Assembly (NCBI GenBank): GCA_009693995.1
Contig: SHWA01000002.1
Span: 138-64,137, forward strand
DNA length: 64,000 nt
Origin: Alphaproteobacteria bacterium
Lineage (GTDB): Bacteria; Pseudomonadota; Alphaproteobacteria; SHWA01
Direction: 5' to 3'
Position 1 is the stretch's first letter, and each line of letters begins with the position of its first letter. A program made the translations under genes and the position numbers. The notes under the pieces were generated by a model, which worked only from the letters and a program-made list of their open reading frames with translations, had not been told where the DNA came from and ran no database searches. Shown here piece by piece: positions 6,060-40,424 of this stretch.

Positions 6060-7376
6060 ATGAGCCGGAATGTCGCCATCGTCGGATCCGGCCCGGGCGG
6101 CTTTTACACTGCCGAGGCCTTGTTGAAGGCCTGTCCCGGCTGCCGGATCGACATCATCGACCGCCTGCCCACCCCCTATGGCCTGATCCGCGCCGGGGTC
6201 GCCCCGGACCATCAGACCACCAAGAAGGTCGCGCGCAACTTCCGCGCAACCGCGCTCTCCGGCCCGGTCGCCTACCTCGGCAACGTCGAGGTCGGGCGCG
6301 ACGTGAGCGTGGCTGATTTGCAAGCGTGCTACGACGCGGTGGTCTTCGCCATCGGCATGCCGCACGACAAGGCGCTCGGGATTCCGGGCGAAGACCTGGC
6401 GGGCGTGATCGGCTCGGCGGCATTCGTCGGCTGGTACAACGCGCACCCCGACTTCCGCGACCTGAACCCGCCCCTCGACACCCAGGCCGTGGTCGTGGTC
6501 GGCACCGGCAACGTCGCCATCGACTGCGCCCGGGTGCTGGTGAAGACCCGGGCCGAGATGGCCGAATCGGACCTGCCCGAATACGCCCAGGCCGCGATCG
6601 AGGCGGCGCCGATCCGCGACGTTTACATGGTCGGCCGGCGCGGCCCCATCGAAGCCAAGTTCACCAACGTGGAGCTGCGCGAGATGGGCGAACTGGAGGC
6701 CGCCATGCCGGTGGTGGACGCGGCCGTCCTTCCCGCCTCGGCCGCCGATTACCCCGGCCTCTCCGACCGCGACCGCCGCCTGAAGGAGCGCAACCTCGCC
6801 TCCTTGCGAGAATTTGCGACCGCCGAAGCCAAGGGGCGCCCGAAGCGGGTGCACTTCCTGTTCAACCTGGCGCCGGTCGCGATCCTGGGCGAGGCCCGGG
6901 TACGGGCGGTGCGCTTCGAGCAGACCCGGGTCGAGGGCGAGCGCGCGGTCGGCACCGGCGAGTTCAGCGAAATCCCTTGCGGCCTGGTAATTCCCGCCAT
7001 CGGCTACCGCTCCTCTGGCCTCGACGGCGTGCCGTTCGATGCACGGTCCGGCACCATCGCCAATGCCGATGGGCGGGTCGGCGACGGCCTCTATGCGGTG
7101 GGCTGGATCAAGCGCGGGCCGACGGGCGTGATCGCCACCAATCGCCCCGACGGCGTGGCGGTTGCCGGCCACATCGCCAAGGACATCGCGAGCGGTACCA
7201 AACCCGGGCGCGAGGCGCTGTTCGCGCTCCTCGCCGGGCGTGGCGTGCGTGTCACCTCCTTCCCCGACTGGGAACGGATCGAGGCCGCCGAGACCGCCGC
7301 GGCCGCGCCCCCGGCGCCGCGCCGAAAGTTCGCGCGCATCAAGGACATGCTGGAACTGCTCGGACCCGGATCCTGA
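6060..7376 (+). CDS. NADPH:ferredoxin (adrenodoxin-type) reductase, FprA-like
   Basis: 438-aa ORF. N-terminal FAD motif VAIVGSGPGGFY, then PTPYGLIRAGVAPDH, and a second nucleotide motif VVVVGTGNVAIDCARVL. Confidence 0.8.
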   Translation: MSRNVAIVGSGPGGFYTAEALLKACPGCRIDIIDRLPTPYGLIRAGVAPDHQTTKKVARNFRATALSGPVAYLGNVEVGRDVSVADLQACYDAVVFAIGMPHDKALGIPGEDLAGVIGSAAFVGWYNAHPDFRDLNPPLDTQAVVVVGTGNVAIDCARVLVKTRAEMAESDLPEYAQAAIEAAPIRDVYMVGRRGPIEAKFTNVELREMGELEAAMPVVDAAVLPASAADYPGLSDRDRRLKERNLASLREFATAEAKGRPKRVHFLFNLAPVAILGEARVRAVRFEQTRVEGERAVGTGEFSEIPCGLVIPAIGYRSSGLDGVPFDARSGTIANADGRVGDGLYAVGWIKRGPTGVIATNRPDGVAVAGHIAKDIASGTKPGREALFALLAGRGVRVTSFPDWERIEAAETAAAAPPAPRRKFARIKDMLELLGPGS

Positions 7377-31958: not shown

Positions 31959-33167
31959 CTAGCGTTCCTTGGCGCGTTTGGAGGGAGCCCCGAACACCCG
32001 TGCGGTGTCAGCGCCGAGCGCCGGCGGGCGGCTGCGGAAGGCGGGGCGGACACCGTCGAAGGAGAGCGGCAGGCCCATCAGGCGCATGGCGCCGTCGGGA
32101 GAGGGCTGGATCATGCCGAGGGCTTCGGTCTGCGCGTCCGCCACCACCTGATCCACCGATTGCAGCGCGGCGCACGGGATGCCGGCGGCCTCCAGCTTGG
32201 CGATCCATACGTCGCGCGGCGCGGTCTGCAACACCGCCTCCACGGCCGCGTTCACCGCCGCGCGGTTGCGCACCCGCTCGGGGTTGGTCGCGAAACGCGC
32301 GTCCCGCAGCCACTCTGGCTTCTCGAGGACGGCACACAGCTTGGCGAACAATGAATCGTTGCCGGCGGCGACCACCAGATAATGGTCCGCCGCCCGGTAG
32401 GCCTTGTAGGGCACCAGTATCGCCGCCTCGGAGCCGAGGCGTTCCTGCACGAAGCCGTCCGCCAGGTACATGGCGACCGGCACCGTCATCCAGGAGAGCG
32501 CGGTCTCGTAGAGCGAGCCGTCGACCTGACAGCCGACGCCGGTGACATGGCGCCGGCCAAGGGCGGCGAGAATGCCGATCACCGACCACATGCCGCAAGC
32601 GATGTCGATGATCGACGGGCCGACCCGGACCGGGGGGCGCCCCATCTCGCCGGTGATGCTCATGATGCCGCCATAGGCCTGCATCAGGGGATCGTAGCCG
32701 GGCCGCTCCGCCTTGGGGCCGCGGGCGCCGAAGGCGCCGAGGTTGCAGTAGATCAGGCGCGGATTGCGTTCCCTGAGCCGCGCGCACAGGCCGAGGCGCG
32801 CCACCTGGCCGGGGCGCATGTTCTGCAGCACCACGTCGGCTTCGGCGGCGATGAAATCGGCGAGGCGGGTGGTCTCCGCGGGTGCCTTGAAATCCACCAC
32901 CACCGAGAGCTTGTTGCGGTTCAGGCTCTGGAAGGTGGCGGAGGAGCCGAGCCAGAAGGGCGGCCCCCAGGCGCGGGCGTCGTCACCCTTCCCCGGGCGC
33001 TCGACCTTGATCACGGTCGCGCCCAGGTCGGCCAGCACCTGGCCGGCGAAGGGAGCCGCAACACTGTGTCCCAGCTCGACGACGGTGATGCCGCTGAGCG
33101 GCGCGTGCGGCTCCATGGAGGGTGCGAGCGATTCCCGAGGATTGCCGGGAAACTCTACGAGCCGCAC
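31959..33167 (-). CDS. Family III CoA-transferase (CaiB/BaiF)
   Basis: Contains GITVVELGHSVAAPFAGQVLADLGATVIKVERP and GYDPLMQAYGGIMSITGE. The true start may be MEPHAPL at 33116. Confidence 0.85.
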   Translation of the reverse strand: MRLVEFPGNPRESLAPSMEPHAPLSGITVVELGHSVAAPFAGQVLADLGATVIKVERPGKGDDARAWGPPFWLGSSATFQSLNRNKLSVVVDFKAPAETTRLADFIAAEADVVLQNMRPGQVARLGLCARLRERNPRLIYCNLGAFGARGPKAERPGYDPLMQAYGGIMSITGEMGRPPVRVGPSIIDIACGMWSVIGILAALGRRHVTGVGCQVDGSLYETALSWMTVPVAMYLADGFVQERLGSEAAILVPYKAYRAADHYLVVAAGNDSLFAKLCAVLEKPEWLRDARFATNPERVRNRAAVNAAVEAVLQTAPRDVWIAKLEAAGIPCAALQSVDQVVADAQTEALGMIQPSPDGAMRLMGLPLSFDGVRPAFRSRPPALGADTARVFGAPSKRAKER

Positions 33168-33201
33168 CCGGACCGGTCAACGCATGGCTGGGGCGTGCGG
33201 C

Positions 33202-33817
33202 TCAGGCGACCGCCGTCACGGCACGGGGTGTCGGCGTCGCCTCCATGCGCAGCGCCGCCACGGCCTTGGCGAAGGCGGCCGCGAGCGGAGAGAGCGCGCG
33301 CTCGCCGGGGCGGATCAGGGGCACTGCCCGGCTCAGGTAGGGAGCCGCGAGCGGGCGCCGGTCGAGGGCGGTTGAGGGAGACCAGGCCGAGCTCGTGGTC
33401 ACCGTCGGCGAGCCCTTGGAACACCTCGCCTTGGGAGCGCTCGCGCAGTTCGAACTGGGCGTCGGCATGGTCGCGGACGAAGCCGGCGAGGAGGCCGGCC
33501 AGGCCCTCGCCGCCGACCAGGGTGGAGACGCCGAGGCGGAGCACGCCACCGGCGCCGGCCTGGAAGCGCTTGGCGGCGGCGCGGGCGGCGGTGGTGTGCA
33601 CATCGACCTGGGCCAGGTGCTGGCGCACCAGGTTGCCGAGCGGGGTGAGCCGCACGCAGCCGCGGTCGCGGTCGAACAGGGAACCCCGGAACTCGTGCTC
33701 GAGACCTTGGATCGCGCGGGTGAGGGCGGGCTGGGTCACGTTGCAGCGATCCGCCGCCTTGGTGAAGTTGCGCGTCTCGCAGAGCGCGAGGAAGTAGCGG
33801 ATCTGGTGCATTTCCAT
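33202..33817 (-). pseudogene. LysR-family regulator, apparently frameshifted and internally shortened
   Basis: The frame from ATG 33817 gives a good LysR HTH and the start of the effector domain (MEMHQIRYFLALCETRNFTKAADRCNVTQPALTRAIQGLE ... DHELGLVS), then turns into P/R/G-rich nonsense. A +1 shift near 33370 gives LDRRPLAAPYLSRAVPLIRPGERALSPLAAAFAKAVAALR, which looks like a LysR C-terminus ending at 33202. Combined length is only ~205 aa against the usual ~300. Confidence 0.45.
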
Positions 33818-33938
33818 GGGAGGCTCCCTTTATTTCCGTCTGCGCCGCGCCGCGAGGGCCGGCTGCGACGGTCTGAGGATGACCCGTCCCTGGTCACGAT
33901 GTCCTCCTGGAGAGATCACGAAAGAATCACGGGCCGCA

Positions 33939-33992
33939 TTGACCGATCTCGTCGTCATCGAGGCCTACGACGTGAACGCGGGGTGGCCGTGA
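33939..33992 (+). repeat. 54-bp direct repeat, copy 1 (ends ...VNAGWP-TGA)
   Basis: ttgaccgatctcgtcgtcatcgaggcctacgacgtgaacgcggggtggccgtga matches 35362-35415 at 49 of 54 positions by direct comparison. Confidence 0.8.
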
Positions 33993-34039
33993 CCGCCCTT
34001 TTCTTCGCGTCGTCGGCAGGATTTCACCATCACCGACCC

Positions 34040-35239
34040 TTAAGGCAACCGAATGACTATCGCCCCGAGCCGCCAAAGAGATTGAAAAGTGCGCCGCGCA
34101 TAGGCGATCAACGCCTCATGGTCCGCGTTAATTCCGGCGCCAAATATGATGTCGCGGATGCGGGCCTTGCCGGTCACGGCTTTGACGAGGGCAACCTGGG
34201 CCGGGGCGAGATCGCAATTCATCTTCTCCCAAAGCAGTTTGCCGGAGCCATCCGGTTGGAGCTTCAGCGTGGTGGCGGTCTTTGCCATGGGGATGAAGTC
34301 GAGAAATTCGGGGCTGTCGAAGTCGATGAGATAGTCGGCGACGGGGCGCTCCGCGCGGGTGGCAATAAAGGTATGACAGGCGTTGAGGGTGTTGAACCTC
34401 TCCATGGCCTGCCAAATTTTCTCGGATGGCAGTTTGTTGACGGCACTGTAGAGCACACTATCTCCTGGAGCGCGTTGCTCCGGATAATAGCAAATATTCT
34501 CAAGCCATCCTTGGAAGGAAAGACCGGCGTTTCGAACAAACTCAAGAACGTCACCGACGGAATAGCTCCTCGCGCGGGCCTGCAAATAAATGTCCACGAT
34601 CCCTGCATCGGTGTTCAGATATGGGTCGCGCGGGATGTAGCTCTTGATTGGATGCTCGGGGGGAATCTGGGCGATGGTGTCGCGCACAATGTCGAACCCG
34701 ATTGGCCCGGGTTTGACTCCCATGATCTCGAACATGGACATGAGAGTTTCGACGCCGAAACGCCCGTACTTTGCATAGAGCAAGATGACCGCGACCCCCT
34801 CGGGCCGAAGGAGCTTGCCCAGGGTGGTCATTCCCGCCTGCGGGTCGGCCATATGGTGCAGAACGCCGGTGCAGACGATGAGGTCGAAGGTCTGCCCAAG
34901 CGTATCGGCTTCCTCGATCGACAATCGGCGGAGTTCGAGGTTCGAGAGGCCGTATTTCTCCTTGAGCGCGGATTCGTGACGCAGCGCCGCGCTGGTCACG
35001 TCGATGCCCAGCACCCGCGCGGTGGGATTGTGGAGCGCGATCGATGCCGCCTGGGTCGTGCCGCATCCCGCGGAGAGAATATTAAGACCCTCGGGGTACG
35101 CCGCCATGCGCGGCCAGTATTGCCGAAAGGCACTCTTTGGATCGCATAAGAGCAACGGCAAGTCATCGTTTGGCGGCGGATACGGCCATGCTTCGTATTG
35201 ACGCGAAATTGCGTCGTTCAGCGGTGAGTCGTTCATCAT
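34040..35239 (-). CDS. Class I SAM-dependent methyltransferase with an uncharacterised ~230-aa C-terminal extension
   Basis: 399-aa ORF with motif I ILSAGCGTTQ and the post-I/II region VLGIDVT...FDLIVCTGVLHHMADP...LLRPEGV. Base composition is visibly A/T-richer than the flanks. Confidence 0.75.
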   Translation of the reverse strand: MMNDSPLNDAISRQYEAWPYPPPNDDLPLLLCDPKSAFRQYWPRMAAYPEGLNILSAGCGTTQAASIALHNPTARVLGIDVTSAALRHESALKEKYGLSNLELRRLSIEEADTLGQTFDLIVCTGVLHHMADPQAGMTTLGKLLRPEGVAVILLYAKYGRFGVETLMSMFEIMGVKPGPIGFDIVRDTIAQIPPEHPIKSYIPRDPYLNTDAGIVDIYLQARARSYSVGDVLEFVRNAGLSFQGWLENICYYPEQRAPGDSVLYSAVNKLPSEKIWQAMERFNTLNACHTFIATRAERPVADYLIDFDSPEFLDFIPMAKTATTLKLQPDGSGKLLWEKMNCDLAPAQVALVKAVTGKARIRDIIFGAGINADHEALIAYARRTFQSLWRLGAIVIRLP

Positions 35240-35361
35240 CGCGATTTAATCATCCTCCCCCGGCTTGCGCCAGCAGGCAATCCGGGGCTGACGCAGGCCG
35301 CACGCGACCGGGTGATTGCGCTCCGCCTTGCCTTCCGCGCCAAGAAGGATGCCTCGCGGCG

Positions 35362-35415
35362 TTGACCGATCCCGCCGTCATCGAAGCCCACGACGTGAAC
35401 GCAGGGTGGCCGTGA
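35362..35415 (+). repeat. 54-bp direct repeat, copy 2
   Basis: ttgaccgatcccgccgtcatcgaagcccacgacgtgaacgcagggtggccgtga, which translates LTDPAVIEAHDVNAGWP-stop. Confidence 0.8.
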
Positions 35416-35667
35416 AATCCAGGCGCCCGACACCGTGGTCCGGGAGGCCCTGCAAGCTATTACGCTGCCGCCTCTGGAGTAACCGGGTCTTTATTCGACA
35501 TACAACCCTCCCATGGTCTGCAAATTGCGGCCGGCGGGGGCTCGGCGGTTGCAACCGCCGAAACCGCGAGAAGGGATCTCGCATGACCGCAACCGGCCAA
35601 GCAACGGCCACCCCGCCACCCGTGCGCACGGGCGGGGCGACTCTTGGGGTCTTGCAACTTGCAGTCT

Positions 35668-36471
35668 ATGAGAAACGTCACACCCGTTCGCCCGGTGGCG
35701 CCCTATATCGGCGGGAAACGAAACCTATCGCGCCGCCTCGTCGAGCTGATCGATTCGATCCCTCACGAGAGCTATGCCGAAGTATTCGTGGGCATGGGCG
35801 GAGTGTTCTTTCGCCGCCACAGGGTGCCCAAGGCCGAGGTGATCAACGACTATGGTCGGGACGTCGCCACGCTTTTCCGCATCCTCCAGCGACACTACGT
35901 CCAGTTCTTGGACATGATGAAGTATCAGCTCACCACGCGCGCCGAATTCGAGCGCCTGGCGGCCACCGACCCGGCGACGTTGACCGACCTGGAGCGGGCG
36001 GCCCGATTCCTCTACCTCCAGCGCACGGCCTTCGGGGGCAAGGTGGCCGGCCGCAATTTCGGCGTCAGCACAGGCCTGCCAGCCAGGTTCGACCTCACCA
36101 AGCTGGTACCCATGCTGGAGTCCGTCCATGAACGGCTTGCCGGCGTCGTCATCGAATGCCTGCCCTACGGCGACTTCATCGAGCGGTACGACCGGCCCGG
36201 CGTCCTGTTCTACGCCGACCCGCCCTACCAAGGCAGCGAGGGGCACTATGGGAAGGGGCTATTCTCGGCCGAAGACCATGCCCGCCTGGCGGAGCTGCTG
36301 CTATCGATCAAGGGCCGCTTCATCCTGTCGATCAACGACAGCCCAACCATCCGCAAGCTCTACCGCCGTGGGGCCTCGATCGAGGCCCTCGACACCACCT
36401 ACACAATCGCTGGCAGCGACCACGCCCAACGCGTCCGGGAGCTGGTCATCACCGCTCCCGGGGCACGTTAG
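35668..36471 (+). CDS. D12-class N6-adenine DNA methyltransferase (Dam-like, orphan)
   Basis: Starts MRNVTPVRPVAPYIGGKRNL (SAM-binding YxGGK). Catalytic DPPY appears in FYADPPYQG. ATG 35668 is preferred to the track start 35644. Confidence 0.8.
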   Translation: MRNVTPVRPVAPYIGGKRNLSRRLVELIDSIPHESYAEVFVGMGGVFFRRHRVPKAEVINDYGRDVATLFRILQRHYVQFLDMMKYQLTTRAEFERLAATDPATLTDLERAARFLYLQRTAFGGKVAGRNFGVSTGLPARFDLTKLVPMLESVHERLAGVVIECLPYGDFIERYDRPGVLFYADPPYQGSEGHYGKGLFSAEDHARLAELLLSIKGRFILSINDSPTIRKLYRRGASIEALDTTYTIAGSDHAQRVRELVITAPGAR

Positions 36472-36475
36472 CCAG

Positions 36476-36808
36476 CTATCCTTGAACGATCTTGGACCCG
36501 CCCGTCATGACGATGCCGGACCCTGGCCCCATCCGTATCTCAGTGTTCTGAGACCGCATGTTGGTGTTGAAGATGCTTGTTCGCCCGGTGGCGTTGTCGC
36601 CTCCGCCGGTCACGAGAACCCGCGCCGAGGTGATGCTGGAACCCGTCACGGCGATGTTGCCGTCTTGATGGTCGAAGCGGATATTTCCAAGAGCGACCAT
36701 CGTCGCGTTGGTGACACTGATCGAGCCAGTTCCAGCCAGAGCTTGCAGTGTGTCGTTATATGCTGCCTGCAGATCGCGGCTAACGCGGTTGGCGCTGCTC
36801 AAAACCAC
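36476..36808 (-). CDS. Hypothetical protein or gene fragment with G/T/S/N-rich beta-strand repeats
   Basis: 110-aa GTG-initiated ORF (ISVTNATMVALGNIRFDHQDGNIAVTGSSITSARVLVTGGGDNATG). No recognisable signal peptide or RBS. It may be the C-terminal piece of a larger adhesin- or tail-fibre-like gene. Confidence 0.3.
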   Translation of the reverse strand: MVLSSANRVSRDLQAAYNDTLQALAGTGSISVTNATMVALGNIRFDHQDGNIAVTGSSITSARVLVTGGGDNATGRTSIFNTNMRSQNTEIRMGPGSGIVMTGGSKIVQG

Positions 36809-36811
36809 CCG

Positions 36812-36940
36812 TCACTTGTGCCTAAAACCAGGCGTCGCGCTACAACGGTCTGCGACCACCTCTGCATAGTGCGCGGCCTTGAGGCCGATTCCGGCTATGG
36901 CCGGGATCGGCAGAGGGCGTGGGGTCGGAGTGGGGGCCAC
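36812..36940 (-). pseudogene. 5' stump of a DUF692/MNIO (BufB-like) gene
   Basis: GTG at 36940 (GGAG 7 nt upstream) lies 25 nt after the DUF2282 stop. It gives MAPTPTPRPLPIPAIAGIGLKAAHYAEVVADR, matching the G-(I/L)-G-L-(R/K)-x-x-H-Y N-terminal motif of DUF692 enzymes. It then diverges (CSATPGFRHK) and stops at TGA 36812-36814. Confidence 0.55.
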
Positions 36941-36965: not shown

Positions 36966-37232
36966 TCAGCTGGCCTTGAGCGAGGCGCCGACGATCTTCT
37001 CGCAGGCACCGGCCGGAACGTAGATCCAGGCGTCCTTCTGGGCGTTGGTCTTGGACGTGCCGGCGCAGGAGGAGGCCGCAGTCTGGCAGTCGTTCTTGCC
37101 GGCCTTGACGACGCCGTAGCACTTCTCGGCCTTGAACGTCGGGGCCGCCGTGGGCTGCGCCTCGACCGCGGCCGCCGCCATCGCGAGCGCCGCCGTCATG
37201 ACCGTGCCGATCAGTATCTTGCTGGCATTCAT
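36966..37232 (-). CDS. DUF2282-family secreted 4-Cys peptide (bufferin BufA1-type RiPP precursor)
   Basis: 88 aa with an AAGGAG RBS 7 nt upstream of ATG 37232. Signal peptide MNASKILIGTVMTAALAMAAAAVEA. Four Cys at positions 38, 49, 56 and 77 in EKCYG, NDCQ, SSCAG and GACEKI contexts. It is the 3' end of track ORF 36966..38612. Confidence 0.8.
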   Translation of the reverse strand: MNASKILIGTVMTAALAMAAAAVEAQPTAAPTFKAEKCYGVVKAGKNDCQTAASSCAGTSKTNAQKDAWIYVPAGACEKIVGASLKAS

Positions 37233-37441: not shown

Positions 37442-39634
37442 TCACTCGCTCGCGCCGGTGATCAGGCGTGTGCTCTGCCGGTAGGTCAGGTACGACCACC
37501 CCCACTGCATCACGACCGAGGCGCGCGCCCGCATCTCGGCCAGAAACAGCACGTGCACCGCGCCCCACAGCCACCAGGCGAGCGGCCCGGTCAGCTTGAT
37601 GCGGCCGAAGTCGGCGACCGCGGCAGCGCGGCCGATGGTGGCGAGACTCCCCTGGTGGACGTACGTGAAGGGCGCCGGTTCCGGCCGGCCGGAAAGGCGC
37701 GCGCGCAGCACCTTGGCGACGTGGACGGCGCCCTGCTTCGCCGCCGGGGCCAGTCCCGGCACCGGCTTGCCTTCCCAAGCGTCGGCCGCCGCCGTGTCGC
37801 CGATCGCGAACACGCCCTCGCGGCCGATCACATTCAGGTGCGGGCCGACCTTCACACGCCCGGCGCGGTCGGCCTCGGCCTTCAGCCACTTGGCCGCGGG
37901 CGAGGCCATGACGCCGGCCGCCCACAGCACGGTCCGAGCCGGAATGTGTTCGCCGCCGACGGTGACGCCGGTCGCGTCCACTTGCTCGACCCGGCTTGCG
38001 GTCTTCACCTCGACGCCGAGCGCTGCGAGTTGGCGCTGGGCGGCCGCCGACATGTCCTCGGCGAAGGAAGCGAGCACGCGCGGCCCCGCTTCGATCAGGA
38101 CGACGCGCGCCGCCGCCGGATCGATGCTGCGGAACTCGCCTTCCAGGCCCTTGCGCGCGAGCTCGGCGATGGCGCCGGCGAGCTCGACCCCGGTTGGGCC
38201 GCCGCCGACGATGCAGAAGGTCAGCCAGGCGCGCCGCGCCGCCTCGTCGGACGCGGTCTCCGCTGCCTCGAAGGCGGTGAGGAGCCGGCGGCGCACCTCG
38301 GTCGCGTCGGAAACCTTCTTTATGCCCGGCGCGTCGGCCTCCCACGCGTCCTTGCCGAAATAGGCGTGCCGCGCCCCCGTCGCCAGCACCAGGTAGTCGT
38401 AGGTGATGCGCTGGTCGTCGGCGATCACGGCGCGCGCCCCCACGTCGACGTCGCCGACCCGCGCCATCAGCACCTGCACGTTCGGCTGGTCGCGGAAGAG
38501 ACTGCGGATCGGGGTGGCGATGTCGGACGGCGCCAGCGTCGCGGTCGCCACCTGGTAGAGCAGCGGCTGGAACAGGTGGTAGTTGCGCCGGTCGACCAGG
38601 GTGACTCGGCACGGGGTGTGGCGGAGCGCCTTGGCCAGGGTCACGCCGCCAAACCCGGCGCCGACCACGACTATGTGGGGCAAGCGCATGCGCGCCTTCG
38701 CATCCAGCTCCGGCGCCTGCGCCGCCGCCTCGTGCAGCAGCAGCGCATCGACCGCGAGCGCGCCGTGGCTGCGGAAGGCGAACAGCAGGCCGAACAGCGC
38801 CCAGTAGCCGAGGTCGCCCCTGGCGAGCTCGGTGTATTCGCCGAGCAGGAGCGCGCCGAGCGACCAGAGCACCAGCAGCGCCCCGCCGGCCCGGGTCGCC
38901 AGGCCGAGCGCCAGCAGGGCCGGAATCACGGCCGCAGGCACGAACCCGAGCGGCCCGCCGGCGCCGGCGAAAAGCGGCAGGGCGGTGAAGTCGAGGCGCA
39001 GCAGCCCGGGCTGCCCGGTGAGCGACTCGGCGACATTGCGCGCCGCCAGGAACAGCATGCCGGCGAGGCCCAGGCGGAGCGCCAGCAGATAGAGCGGCGC
39101 GCCAACCCGTGCGGTGGCTGCCAGCGCGGCCGCGAGGGCGCCGGCGAAGGGAACCGCGCTCCGCGCCAGACCCGGCGCCAGCAGGCGGTCGAGGGAGAGG
39201 GCGCCGGCCCCGCGCACCACGAACCAGCCCAGCAGCAGCACCCAGTAGACGTGCTCATTCAGCGCCTGGTACTCGAACTGGACCACGAGCGTGAGCGCCA
39301 GCATGGCCAGGGCGGCGACCCGGGTGCCGAGACCCAAGATCAGGGCGGCGCCGCCGATCACCTCGATGGTCGCACCAACTACCGCCGCCACCTCGGGCGC
39401 CAGCCAGGAAACCGGGTATTCGTTGCTGGCGAGCAGGAGCGCCGTCTGCCAGTCCGCCACCTTGAGCAGGCCCGAGAACAGGAATACCGGCCCGATCCAG
39501 AGGCGGATCACCAGGTCGACCACGGGGCCGCCGAACCGTTCCACCAGATGGAGCATGTCCTTGGCAGCGAGCATCAGACGCCACACCGGTGGTGCCTCGA
39601 GGGTCGCGGAATCGCGGTTGCGAGCATCACTCAT
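37442..39634 (-). CDS. Fusion protein: two tandem DoxX-like membrane domains plus a type II NADH dehydrogenase (NDH-2) module
   Basis: Single uninterrupted 730-aa ORF. Residues ~38-152 are DoxX-like (RLWIGPVFLFSGLLKV...EVIGGAALILGLGTRVAAL...GAGALSLDRLL). Residues ~183-299 are a second, more divergent DoxX-like block (LALGLATRAGGALL...HGALAVDALL). Residues ~317-730 are NDH-2 (HIVVVGAGFGGV, NYHLFQPLLYQVAT, IVGGGPTGVELAG, FAIGD). Confidence 0.8.
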   Translation of the reverse strand: MSDARNRDSATLEAPPVWRLMLAAKDMLHLVERFGGPVVDLVIRLWIGPVFLFSGLLKVADWQTALLLASNEYPVSWLAPEVAAVVGATIEVIGGAALILGLGTRVAALAMLALTLVVQFEYQALNEHVYWVLLLGWFVVRGAGALSLDRLLAPGLARSAVPFAGALAAALAATARVGAPLYLLALRLGLAGMLFLAARNVAESLTGQPGLLRLDFTALPLFAGAGGPLGFVPAAVIPALLALGLATRAGGALLVLWSLGALLLGEYTELARGDLGYWALFGLLFAFRSHGALAVDALLLHEAAAQAPELDAKARMRLPHIVVVGAGFGGVTLAKALRHTPCRVTLVDRRNYHLFQPLLYQVATATLAPSDIATPIRSLFRDQPNVQVLMARVGDVDVGARAVIADDQRITYDYLVLATGARHAYFGKDAWEADAPGIKKVSDATEVRRRLLTAFEAAETASDEAARRAWLTFCIVGGGPTGVELAGAIAELARKGLEGEFRSIDPAAARVVLIEAGPRVLASFAEDMSAAAQRQLAALGVEVKTASRVEQVDATGVTVGGEHIPARTVLWAAGVMASPAAKWLKAEADRAGRVKVGPHLNVIGREGVFAIGDTAAADAWEGKPVPGLAPAAKQGAVHVAKVLRARLSGRPEPAPFTYVHQGSLATIGRAAAVADFGRIKLTGPLAWWLWGAVHVLFLAEMRARASVVMQWGWSYLTYRQSTRLITGASE

Positions 39635-39896
39635 GGCTATCTAACGCCTCCATTCGGGGCCACGCGGCGGCTTGCTTTGACCGTCGCGGCGGGCACATGA
39701 AATCCTGCGTCCGCTACGCGCCAGGATTGAAATGCCGATCAGGCATCGCCGCATGCGGGCGTGCTATGATCACCGATGCCGATAACCCGGCGGCATTGCA
39801 AGCCGCCGGAAAGTCATTTCACGCGCCGCGGGCGACGCGCGCAGGATGGAATGCAGGGGCGGCGCGACCGGCCCCCACCCGAGGGAGGAGCAGATA

Positions 39897-40424
39897 ATGG
39901 CAGCGAAATCCGCAACCAAGGGCCGCCGCATTGTCCGGCAGAAGCTAGATGCAGCCCTGCCGGCGAGCGGCGGACTGAACGGCGTCGAGATGGACGTCGA
40001 CTCCATGCTGCTGCTGGGGCGCGCCAACGTGGACACGCTGATGTCGCTCAATGCCCTCGCCATCGACTGCATCGAGCGCTGCGCCGAGCGCCAGGTCGAG
40101 GCCTGGAACCGCATGACGTCGAACATGATGAATTCATTGAAGCTCTTGGCGATCGCCCAGAACGCGACCAAGGGCGGCTCGGATTCCCGCAAGTTCGTGG
40201 GCGAAGCGGTGCAGGGCATCCTGGACGAGTTCCAGGCGCTCACCACCATCGTCGCCCGCGCCAATCACGACGCGCTCTCGCTGGTGACCGACCGCGCCAC
40301 CGCGAATCTGACCGCGGCCCAGGACGCCGCCGGGCGGGCCATGAATGCCTGCCTGGAAAACGCCCAAGAGGCGCTCGCCACCGGCAGCCTGCCGGGCGGC
40401 GCCGGCAGCGAACGGCGCGGGTAG
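39897..40424 (+). CDS. Phasin-family (PHA granule-associated) protein
   Basis: ATG 39897 follows GAGGGAGGAG. The 175-aa alpha-helical protein has a phasin-like core (VDTLMSLNALAIDCIERCAERQVEAWNRM...FQALTTIVARANHDAL). Confidence 0.55.
   Translation: MAAKSATKGRRIVRQKLDAALPASGGLNGVEMDVDSMLLLGRANVDTLMSLNALAIDCIERCAERQVEAWNRMTSNMMNSLKLLAIAQNATKGGSDSRKFVGEAVQGILDEFQALTTIVARANHDALSLVTDRATANLTAAQDAAGRAMNACLENAQEALATGSLPGGAGSERRG

Follow-up and report, generated by a model that had tools for sequence, protein, structure and literature searches.

A DoxX-DoxX-NDH-2 fusion protein encoded beside a decayed bufferin operon in an alphaproteobacterium

The fusion gene and its protein

The DNA considered here is a 64-kb stretch of an alphaproteobacterial contig (SHWA01000002.1, positions 138 to 64,137; in the following "the window"), which encodes on its minus strand a protein that combines two DoxX membrane modules with a type II NADH dehydrogenase (NDH-2). 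The fusion gene (37442..39634) is a real gene that starts with ATG, comprises 730 codons plus stop, has no internal stop codon in the list of open reading frames (ORFs), and is preceded by a GGAGG motif 13 nt 5' of the ATG. Its neighbour on the same strand, 210 nt downstream, is bufA, which encodes the precursor of a bufferin. In complete bufferin operons, bufA (DUF2282) is accompanied by bufB (MNIO/DUF692), bufC (HvfC/DUF2063) and, as fourth gene, bufD, which encodes a stand-alone DoxX protein (BufD/HvfX).

Pfam recognizes in the fusion protein a DoxX domain at residues 40-120 (E 4.7e-13; 50 bits, cutoff 23.6), Pyr_redox_2 at residues 320-634 (E 4.7e-47), Pyr_redox at residues 474-557 (E 3.5e-17), and NDH2_C at residues 660-719 (E 6.8e-10; 39.4 bits, cutoff 27.7). 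An AlphaFold model of the whole protein that was built from 115 homologues (mean predicted local distance difference test, pLDDT, 84.6; predicted template modelling score, pTM, 0.72) has eight predicted transmembrane (TM) helices N-terminal to the flavoenzyme, which correspond to the two DoxX modules. Each module is a four-helix bundle, with helices 38-60, 80-100, 104-121 and 126-141 in module 1, and 183-206, 228-243, 247-264 and 269-287 in module 2. The proposed cytoplasmic segments contain about 15 lysines and arginines, versus one or two in the opposite, periplasmic loops, and the N-terminus and the NDH-2 part are therefore predicted to be cytoplasmic, with the conserved loop 61-79 (NEYPVSW) facing the periplasm. 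The whole protein has only two cysteines (342 and 474), both outside the DoxX modules, which excludes a thiol relay of the DsbB or VKOR type. Every column that is invariant across the 115 homologues is also present in the window protein. With all family-invariant residues kept, the fusion gene does not look like a pseudogene.

The C-terminal part (residues 318-730; 37445..38683, minus strand) is a complete type II NADH:quinone oxidoreductase domain according to Pfam, PDB and Foldseek comparisons. It contains the motif VVVGAGFGG for binding of flavin adenine dinucleotide (FAD; residues 322-330, with GAGFGG at 325-330; 38639-38671), the NAD(P)H motif IVGGGPTGVELAG (residues 475-487, with GGGPTG at 477-482; 38177-38215), and the C-terminal amphipathic membrane helices of the NDH2_C domain (37478-37657). 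It matches the mycobacterial NDH-2 9mqy, with E 1.3e-92 over residues 320-726 in the PDB sequence search and a TM-score of 0.86 in the Foldseek comparison (root-mean-square deviation 1.6 A, 42% identity, 418 columns). Pfam finds no Pyr_redox_dim, the dimerization domain of disulfide reductases, in the fusion protein, and a redox-active cysteine pair is absent. The NDH-2 part has all elements that a functional NDH-2 requires, among them membrane-anchor helices of its own. It thus resembles known NDH-2 enzymes in both Rossmann motifs, in the C-terminal amphipathic helices, in the absence of a redox-active cysteine pair and in the fold of residues 318-730, but the known enzymes are monotopic single-domain proteins, whereas the fusion adds an N-terminal extension of about 310 residues with eight TM helices.

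Stand-alone NDH-2 enzymes from Bradyrhizobium, Caulobacter and others share 48-57% identity with this domain, and the NDH-2 domains of the fusions form one clade in a neighbour-joining tree calculated without support values. This clade has its own residues, which are, in window numbering, Q515, W620, G496, L628, H660 and Y352. Position 515 is the nucleotide-specificity residue that corresponds, by alignment to 4nwz, to E198 of the Caldalkalibacillus thermarum NDH-2, where an exchange of Glu to Gln shifts the specificity towards NADPH (PMC5220320). Ordinary NDH-2 (64 of 71) and all four unfused bufferin-linked NDH-2 enzymes have Glu at this selector position, whereas 92% of the fusion proteins have Gln. 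The window protein is an exception with Glu515 (codon 38090..38092, minus strand) and is therefore predicted to prefer NADH. The glutamine in most other fusions suggests a non-respiratory, stress-type enzyme; the subfamily is not simply a respiratory one, and NADPH is its probable electron donor.

The two DoxX modules are differently preserved. Module 1 (residues 37-157, TM1-TM4; 39164..39526, minus strand) is intact, is modelled with a pLDDT of about 90-97, and carries a BufD-type signature that consists of R44, K58, E72-Y73-P74, G101-L102-x-T104-R105, G142-x-G144 and D149. Among the 115 sequences, R44, E72, P74, W77, R105, G142 and D149 do not vary, and K58 and Y73 reach a conservation of at least 90%. 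Module 2 (residues 164-306, TM5-TM8; 38717..39145, minus strand) is a degenerate duplicate with a loop of low pLDDT (207-227). It retains R187, R248 and D296, while the conserved Lys and the Glu-Tyr motif are lost, and a Pfam DoxX search of residues 165-305 of the window protein gave no match even at E<=10. The relationship becomes apparent at the family level, where a profile-profile comparison of both modules with hhalign gives a probability of 100% and E 2.8e-39; their C-terminal halves also match each other in BLASTP, with E 4e-4. In homologue P0004, module 2 matches Pfam DoxX with E 1.8e-20, and good DoxX matches are found in many relatives. Judged by these alignments, module 2 is a DoxX-derived duplicate that has degenerated in the window protein.

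An alignment of the fused modules with stand-alone BufD proteins of intact bufferin operons shows the common signature R...K...EY.VP...AA...GL.TR...G.G..S.D. In NCBIfam, the best match of the fused modules is the DoxX protein of the HvfX family 'Cu-binding RiPP maturation' (NF050144), with 41 bits for module 1 and 41-54 bits for fused modules in general, on a par with the 47-56 bits for genuine BufD of intact buf1 operons. As true BufD proteins themselves fall below the cutoff of 80 bits, this cutoff cannot be used as a test of BufD membership. Beside these likenesses there are clear differences, as BufD stands alone, with about 160 residues and four helices, while the fusion has two copies, the second of which is degenerate, and the NDH-2.

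These results agree in large part with a first-pass annotation that had been made from the sequence. The single uninterrupted frame of 730 codons is confirmed by the ORF list, and Pfam, the motifs and the sequence and fold match to 9mqy establish the complete NDH-2 with both dinucleotide-binding motifs. Of the two tandem DoxX modules that were read from the sequence, the first is indeed recognized by Pfam and both have four helices, but the second is degenerate and has no Pfam match in this protein. The annotation had further suggested that the architecture might be undescribed. We found no paper that describes a DoxX-NDH-2 architecture or its link to bufferin loci, but NDH-2 and DoxX are each already known, and the fusion already is in public databases under generic names such as 'FAD-dependent oxidoreductase' or 'DoxX family membrane protein', or, at JGI, under both COG names together.

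Could the fusion be an artefact, in which a doxX-doxX gene and an ndh gene are joined by a missed stop or a frameshift near codons 300-320? The contig stems from what appears to be a metagenome or draft assembly, two abrupt gene truncations lie nearby, and unfused pairs of doxX and ndh do exist in other genomes. However, a search of 5.8 billion proteins identified more than 119 homologues, nearly all of them full-length, with 677-790 residues, 51-59% identity and the same Pfam architecture. They derive from Alpha- and Gammaproteobacteria (Azospirillum, Inquilinus, Minwuia, Competibacteraceae, Chromatiales), and the sources are NCBI, JGI, ENA and Logan, with one isolate genome (Burkholderia sp. 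H160) included. With a profile of the N-terminal 310 residues, 167 clusters (50% identity representatives) were obtained at E<=1e-30; contig-end fragments account for many of these. The conserved linker region aligns without a break across more than 110 full-length homologues (115 aligned), with continuity over the junction codons 296-320. Of the fetched loci, 76 were classed as fusions, and DoxX and NDH-2 are in one frame without stop in the 74 that were checked. As 74 independently assembled loci and the database proteins all have this continuous frame, the explanation by a hidden frameshift is refuted for the family, in line with the single gene of the first-pass annotation, and for the window we regard an artefact as having next to no probability. 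The fusion class was defined by in-frame DoxX matches together with the check for stop codons. An earlier classification by open-frame length alone misfiled high-GC loci and was replaced, and the apparent fusions of a single DoxX module with NDH-2 at four loci (L008, L011, L031, L082) turned out to be two adjacent genes each.

Genomic neighbourhoods of the fusion family

The genomic context was compared at 165 fetched loci: 80 genome loci retrieved via NDH-2 motifs, which mostly contain ordinary NDH-2 and thus serve as background, 80 metagenome loci retrieved via the DoxX motif EYPV[ST]W, and 5 retrieved by exact look-up. The loci were screened with reference proteins from the Inquilinus limosus locus (L001), and for the context counts near-identical loci were collapsed and at least 8 kb of flanking sequence was required. 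Bufferin genes are present at 12 of the resulting 24 fusion loci and a different cluster of SDR/MIP/GMC/VOC/GDE/GH63-like genes at ten, with four loci having both and six neither. All four loci with unfused, adjacent doxX and ndh genes have bufferin genes, and none has the other cluster, both, or neither. Among 61 ordinary NDH-2 loci, one has bufferin genes and one the other cluster, no locus has both, and 59 have neither. The fusion family is strongly enriched beside bufferin genes relative to ordinary NDH-2 (Fisher p = 2.3e-7), in a comparison of two samples that were chosen differently, via DoxX and NDH-2 motifs, respectively, and that are not strictly comparable. The co-occurrence with bufferin genes that the first-pass annotation had brought up is thus seen in a widespread family, at half of its non-redundant loci.

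The dominant gene order is bufA-bufB-bufC-bufD-fusion, in which the fusion is the fifth gene behind a separate bufD. The fusion had initially been taken for the DoxX component of the operon, and while the enrichment supports the association as such, in most intact loci the fusion accompanies a separate bufD rather than replacing it. In one intact operon (L132) the order is fusion-bufA-bufB-bufC-bufD, with a spacer of about 210 nt between fusion and bufA as in the window. In Inquilinus limosus, the fusion is also first, and two glycosidase genes separate it from bufA. Burkholderia sp. H160 (L007, 9086-11335) encodes a 749-residue fusion that is divergent from bufA-bufB-bufC and still belongs to the fusion NDH-2 clade, and both DoxX modules of this protein are without the Lys and Glu-Tyr signature. 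This locus also has a second copy of bufA (2056-2193) and a gene that by eye is NrsF-like (6145-6789).

The same parts are encoded by separate genes elsewhere. At two loci (L031, L082), bufA-bufB-bufC-bufD are followed by a separate ndh gene, and at two Reyranella loci the order is bufA-doxX-ndh, with no MNIO or DUF2063 gene within 10 kb (L008, 9586-11778; L011, 9584-11710). Two further loci (L087, L138) have bufA-(doxX)-fusion without bufB or bufC. The BufA proteins of these gene orders all retain the signal peptide and the four cysteines. This suggests that the four loci without bufB or MNIO genes contain a DUF2282-DoxX-NDH-2 unit that is independent of the known modifying enzymes, or that is served by enzymes encoded elsewhere. 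The occurrence of the same parts as one fusion in some genomes and as separate adjacent genes in others is a classic pattern that indicates a functional link between DoxX and NDH-2.

A LysR-type regulator can be added to the conserved neighbours, as full-length orthologues with 47-51% identity are encoded at eight loci (L008, L011, L082, L092, L099, L129, L130, L150). In a published survey of MNIO neighbourhoods, Pyr_redox_2 was present in 11%, with HTH_1 and LysR_substrate at almost equal counts (PMC12452194). The survey leaves Pyr_redox_2 undiscussed and calls additional conserved genes rare, and it finds DoxX in about 40% of the MNIO/bufferin gene clusters (PMC12452194).

The second recurrent neighbourhood is a conserved cluster with genes for a glucose-1-dehydrogenase-like SDR, a MIP channel, a GMC oxidoreductase, a secreted two-domain VOC/glyoxalase protein, an archaeal-type glycogen-debranching-like enzyme (GDE), and a GH63/MGH1-like glycosidase, and was seen at L001 (3891-15181), L002, L085, L090, L117, L145, L164 and L165. 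At several loci the cluster sits between the bufferin operon and the fusion. The gene of the secreted VOC protein is directly upstream of the fusion in this neighbourhood, and in L001 it overlaps the start codon of the fusion. The fusion may act with the VOC protein and other oxidoreductases of the cluster in a detoxification of quinones and hydroquinones that has nothing to do with bufferins, in which it would use NAD(P)H to reduce toxic or exogenous quinones, and the proximity to bufferin genes would then reflect a shared stress regulon only. The ten non-redundant loci with this cluster and the overlap of the VOC gene with the fusion gene in L001 speak for such a role, and the Gln selector in 92% of the fusions fits an NADPH-capable, non-respiratory enzyme. 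There are also parallels: MhqP and CatD of Bacillus subtilis and YqjF and YphA of Escherichia coli are DoxX-family proteins that are tied to quinone or hydroquinone stress and encoded beside VOC-type dioxygenases, and B. subtilis pairs the DoxX-like MhqP or CatD with ring-cleaving dioxygenases, just as a VOC gene adjoins the fusion at about 40% of the fusion loci. However, none of these proteins is known to be fused to a flavoenzyme or linked to bufferins. What a pure detoxification function leaves unexplained are the unfused bufA-doxX-ndh and bufABCD-ndh operons, which do not have any SDR/MIP/GMC/VOC cluster genes, and the fusions that are placed directly behind bufD. The window itself does not contain such a cluster either, as no SDR/MIP/GMC/VOC cluster genes were found in the 64 kb. 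We therefore consider the bufferin-independent explanation unlikely, albeit worth keeping in mind. Both functions could be reconciled if DoxX-NDH-2 were a general module for quinone redox reactions in the membrane that several stress loci have recruited.

At two unrelated loci (L002, 1-1678; L163, 10921-12786), the fusion adjoins a gene for a GAF-PAS sigma-54 enhancer-binding protein; in the window there is no such gene near the fusion. These sigma-54 activators near homologues motivated a promoter search in the upstream intergenic region (39635..39845, minus strand), from which the phasin gene 39846..40424 (plus strand) diverges. No sigma-54 -24/-12 element (GG-N10-GC) was matched in this region, and a scan for sigma-70 promoters and terminators gave nothing convincing. 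A palindrome, AATCCTG-N13-CAGGATT, is located at 39701-39727 and may be an operator.

The relic of a bufferin operon in the window

The bufA gene next to the fusion (36966..37232, minus strand) is intact. It has an AAGGAG ribosome-binding site and encodes an 88-residue BufA1/DUF2282 bufferin precursor (DUF2282 E 1.1e-23) with a Sec signal peptide and four cysteines. Its spacer to the fusion gene shares only short strings with that of L132 (CATGCA, GCATTTCC), and two sequences are too few for an interpretation. Of bufB, only a remnant is left (36839..36919, minus strand) whose 27 residues, RPLPIPAIAGIGLKAAHYAEVVADRCS, correspond to the N-terminus of the MNIO/DUF692 family. This stump was found by searching a six-frame translation of all 64 kb with an MbnB profile that was made from 17 loci. 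It matches profile positions 16-42 of 300 with E 0.047, being the best match in the window and the sole one below E = 1, and it is positioned exactly at the expected bufB start, with the homology ending at about 36840. Neither bufC nor a separate bufD was detected in the six frames of the window by tblastn and profile searches. Unlike BufD, the window fusion is hence not part of a bufA-bufB-bufC-bufD operon, and only bufA and the bufB stump are its companions.

Most of bufB together with bufC and bufD is replaced by a block of about 3 kb with lower GC content (33818..36838; 57-65% versus 72-75% in the flanks). Pfam assigns two of its genes, one to a class I S-adenosylmethionine (SAM)-dependent methyltransferase (34040..35239, minus strand) and one to an orphan D12 N6-adenine DNA methyltransferase (35644..36471, plus strand), and a third ORF encodes 110 repeat-like residues without Pfam match (36476..36808, minus strand). 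No integrase or transposase is visible in the block, which could have arisen by horizontal insertion accompanied by a deletion, or be a chimera of the assembly. The SAM methyltransferase gene lies between the only two copies in the 64 kb of a 71-nt direct repeat (33922-33992 and 35345-35415, 83% identity). Read on the plus strand, each copy encodes ..LTD(L/P)(V/A)VIEA(Y/H)DVNAGWP followed by a terminal TGA, which looks like a duplicated 3' end of a gene that has been lost. The repeat has no Rfam match and folds no better than shuffled sequence, and no Rfam family was matched anywhere in the window.

On the far side of the block lies a truncated gene (33377..33817, minus strand) for the orthologue of the LysR-type regulator that flanks buf/NDH-2 loci elsewhere. 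Only about the first 148 residues are homologous: in a tblastn search with the LysR protein of L150, query residues 35-182 match at 45% identity, and nothing further was found in any frame. The ORF (33155-33817) continues as unrelated sequence to 33155, where it overlaps the start of a 402-residue ORF (31959..33167), and the lysR gene of the window is probably a pseudogene. From the comparison with Inquilinus and L132, the ancestral order was probably fusion-bufA-bufB-bufC-bufD-lysR. The bufferin operon of the window is thus a decayed relic, with an intact bufA, a stump of bufB, bufC and bufD absent, and a truncated flanking lysR. The first-pass annotation had placed the fusion directly upstream of the bufferin precursor, in a RiPP or copper-stress locus. 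The intact precursor gene is indeed there, but the operon is broken. The pair of fusion and bufA is either a remnant, or a minimal unit of bufA and DoxX-NDH-2 like those in other genomes.

Given this clear rearrangement, the vicinity of the fusion to bufA might be a mere by-product of local events, and the protein might be an ordinary respiratory NDH-2 for which DoxX provides an additional membrane anchor and nothing else. The close similarity of the NDH-2 domain to stand-alone enzymes would agree with that, and so would the decay of module 2 in the window and of both modules in the Burkholderia sp. H160 fusion. However, the NDH-2 part has retained its own NDH2_C anchor, and the polar residues that module 1 has in common with BufD do not vary among 115 sequences, which argues against DoxX being a passive anchor. 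Moreover, this explanation does not account for the enrichment at bufferin loci, for the same fusion-bufA order with the same spacing in the intact operon of L132, or for the residue signature of the fusion clade, which includes the nucleotide selector. An anchor function alone therefore appears improbable.

The quinone pool as possible working partner of DoxX

What could then be the function of the fusion? We favour, with modest confidence, that it is an integral-membrane NAD(P)H:quinone oxidoreductase in which an NDH-2 is joined to a BufD-type DoxX pair and serves as hard-wired quinone reductase for DoxX. In such a protein, the NDH-2 part would take electrons from NADH, or in most relatives possibly from NADPH, and transfer them via FAD to the membrane quinone. 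The DoxX bundle would bind that quinol or quinone and offer its reducing power on the periplasmic side, where Cu(II), a bufferin-copper complex, or toxic quinones and oxidants that arise from copper stress are candidate final acceptors. The fusion would thereby tie a quinone reductase to the enigmatic DoxX component of the copper-stress (bufferin) loci. DoxX as quinone partner is consistent with all evidence. A quinol-dependent reduction of Cu(II) is listed for the NDH-2 of E. coli (PMC7558416), and Buf1 has a higher affinity for Cu(I) than for Cu(II) (PMC11626156), which together make a reduction of Cu(II) one plausible output.

Several observations weigh against this function. The strongest is that a deletion of bufD, i.e. 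of DoxX, in Caulobacter did not affect bufferin maturation or copper protection (PMC11626156), and any role of DoxX in bufferin function is therefore dispensable or conditional. This is the sole genetic test of DoxX in a bufferin system, and its silent outcome might be due to a redundancy of bufD with the fusion. Furthermore, about 40% of the fusion loci (10 of 24) belong to the SDR/MIP/GMC/VOC/GDE/GH63-like cluster and a quarter to neither context, so the fusion protein is not bufferin-specific, and the enrichment itself comes from the two differently chosen samples. The degeneration of module 2 in the window and of both modules in Burkholderia sp. H160 also does not fit easily, and, as described below, structural comparisons of the DoxX pair with proteins in the PDB gave weak matches.

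The idea of a quinone-linked DoxX is not without precedent. DoxDA, the thiosulfate:quinone oxidoreductase of Acidianus ambivalens, and the DoxX-SseA-SodA complex of Mycobacterium tuberculosis were the basis for calling BufD an oxidoreductase (PMC11626156). In both cases, as in the fusion, a membrane subunit of the DoxX family is linked to a redox enzyme, and DoxDA, whose DoxD belongs to this family, is linked to the quinone pool as well. The partners in these systems are separate polypeptides, however, and act in the oxidation of sulfur compounds or in radical detoxification, whereas in the fusion a cytoplasmic flavoenzyme of the same polypeptide would feed electrons from NAD(P)H, and not from thiosulfate, into the quinone.

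A further parallel comes from the fold. A separate AlphaFold model of the DoxX pair (pLDDT 82, pTM 0.80) was compared with the PDB by Foldseek, and the top 14 matches were all vitamin K-dependent gamma-carboxylase (GGCX), with about 290 aligned positions. These matches are weak (probability 0.94-1.0, E about 0.1, TM-score 0.38-0.45), and since a PDB sequence search with the DoxX-pair profile had no match at E<=10, the similarity is one of fold comparison only. The membrane domain of GGCX uses a naphthoquinol, and FSP1, an NDH-2-like vitamin K reductase that is distantly related in sequence and fold to the NDH-2 part of the fusion, reduces vitamin K for GGCX. By analogy, the fusion would bring together a quinone reductase and a membrane module that uses the quinol, which would correspond to the two halves of a vitamin K cycle. 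Apart from the lack of sequence support, the fusion differs from GGCX in having no lumenal carboxylase domain, and the analogy is thus one of working principle and not of membership.

A more far-reaching version of this thought, which we regard as speculative and rather doubtful, is that DoxX is a quinol-using module with a carboxylase-like fold and NDH-2 its dedicated reductase, both together forming a "quinone cycle" that drives periplasmic bufferin chemistry. If true, this cycle would carry the reducing power of NAD(P)H across the membrane, e.g. for the reduction of Cu(II) to the Cu(I) that bufferins prefer, or it would act on the DUF2282 protein. In that case, bufferin systems would act as redox machines instead of chelating passively, and the bufA-doxX-ndh units without MNIO enzyme would be accounted for.

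For the genome of the window itself, the outcome is more modest, namely a well-preserved fusion gene beside a decayed operon. For the family, the finding matters because DoxX, although common in bufferin clusters and many stress operons, has no established mechanism. The conserved fusion of DoxX with a quinone reductase and the unfused bufD-ndh pairs point to the quinone pool as working partner of DoxX, and NDH-2 together with the LysR regulator is a previously unremarked component of extended bufferin loci.

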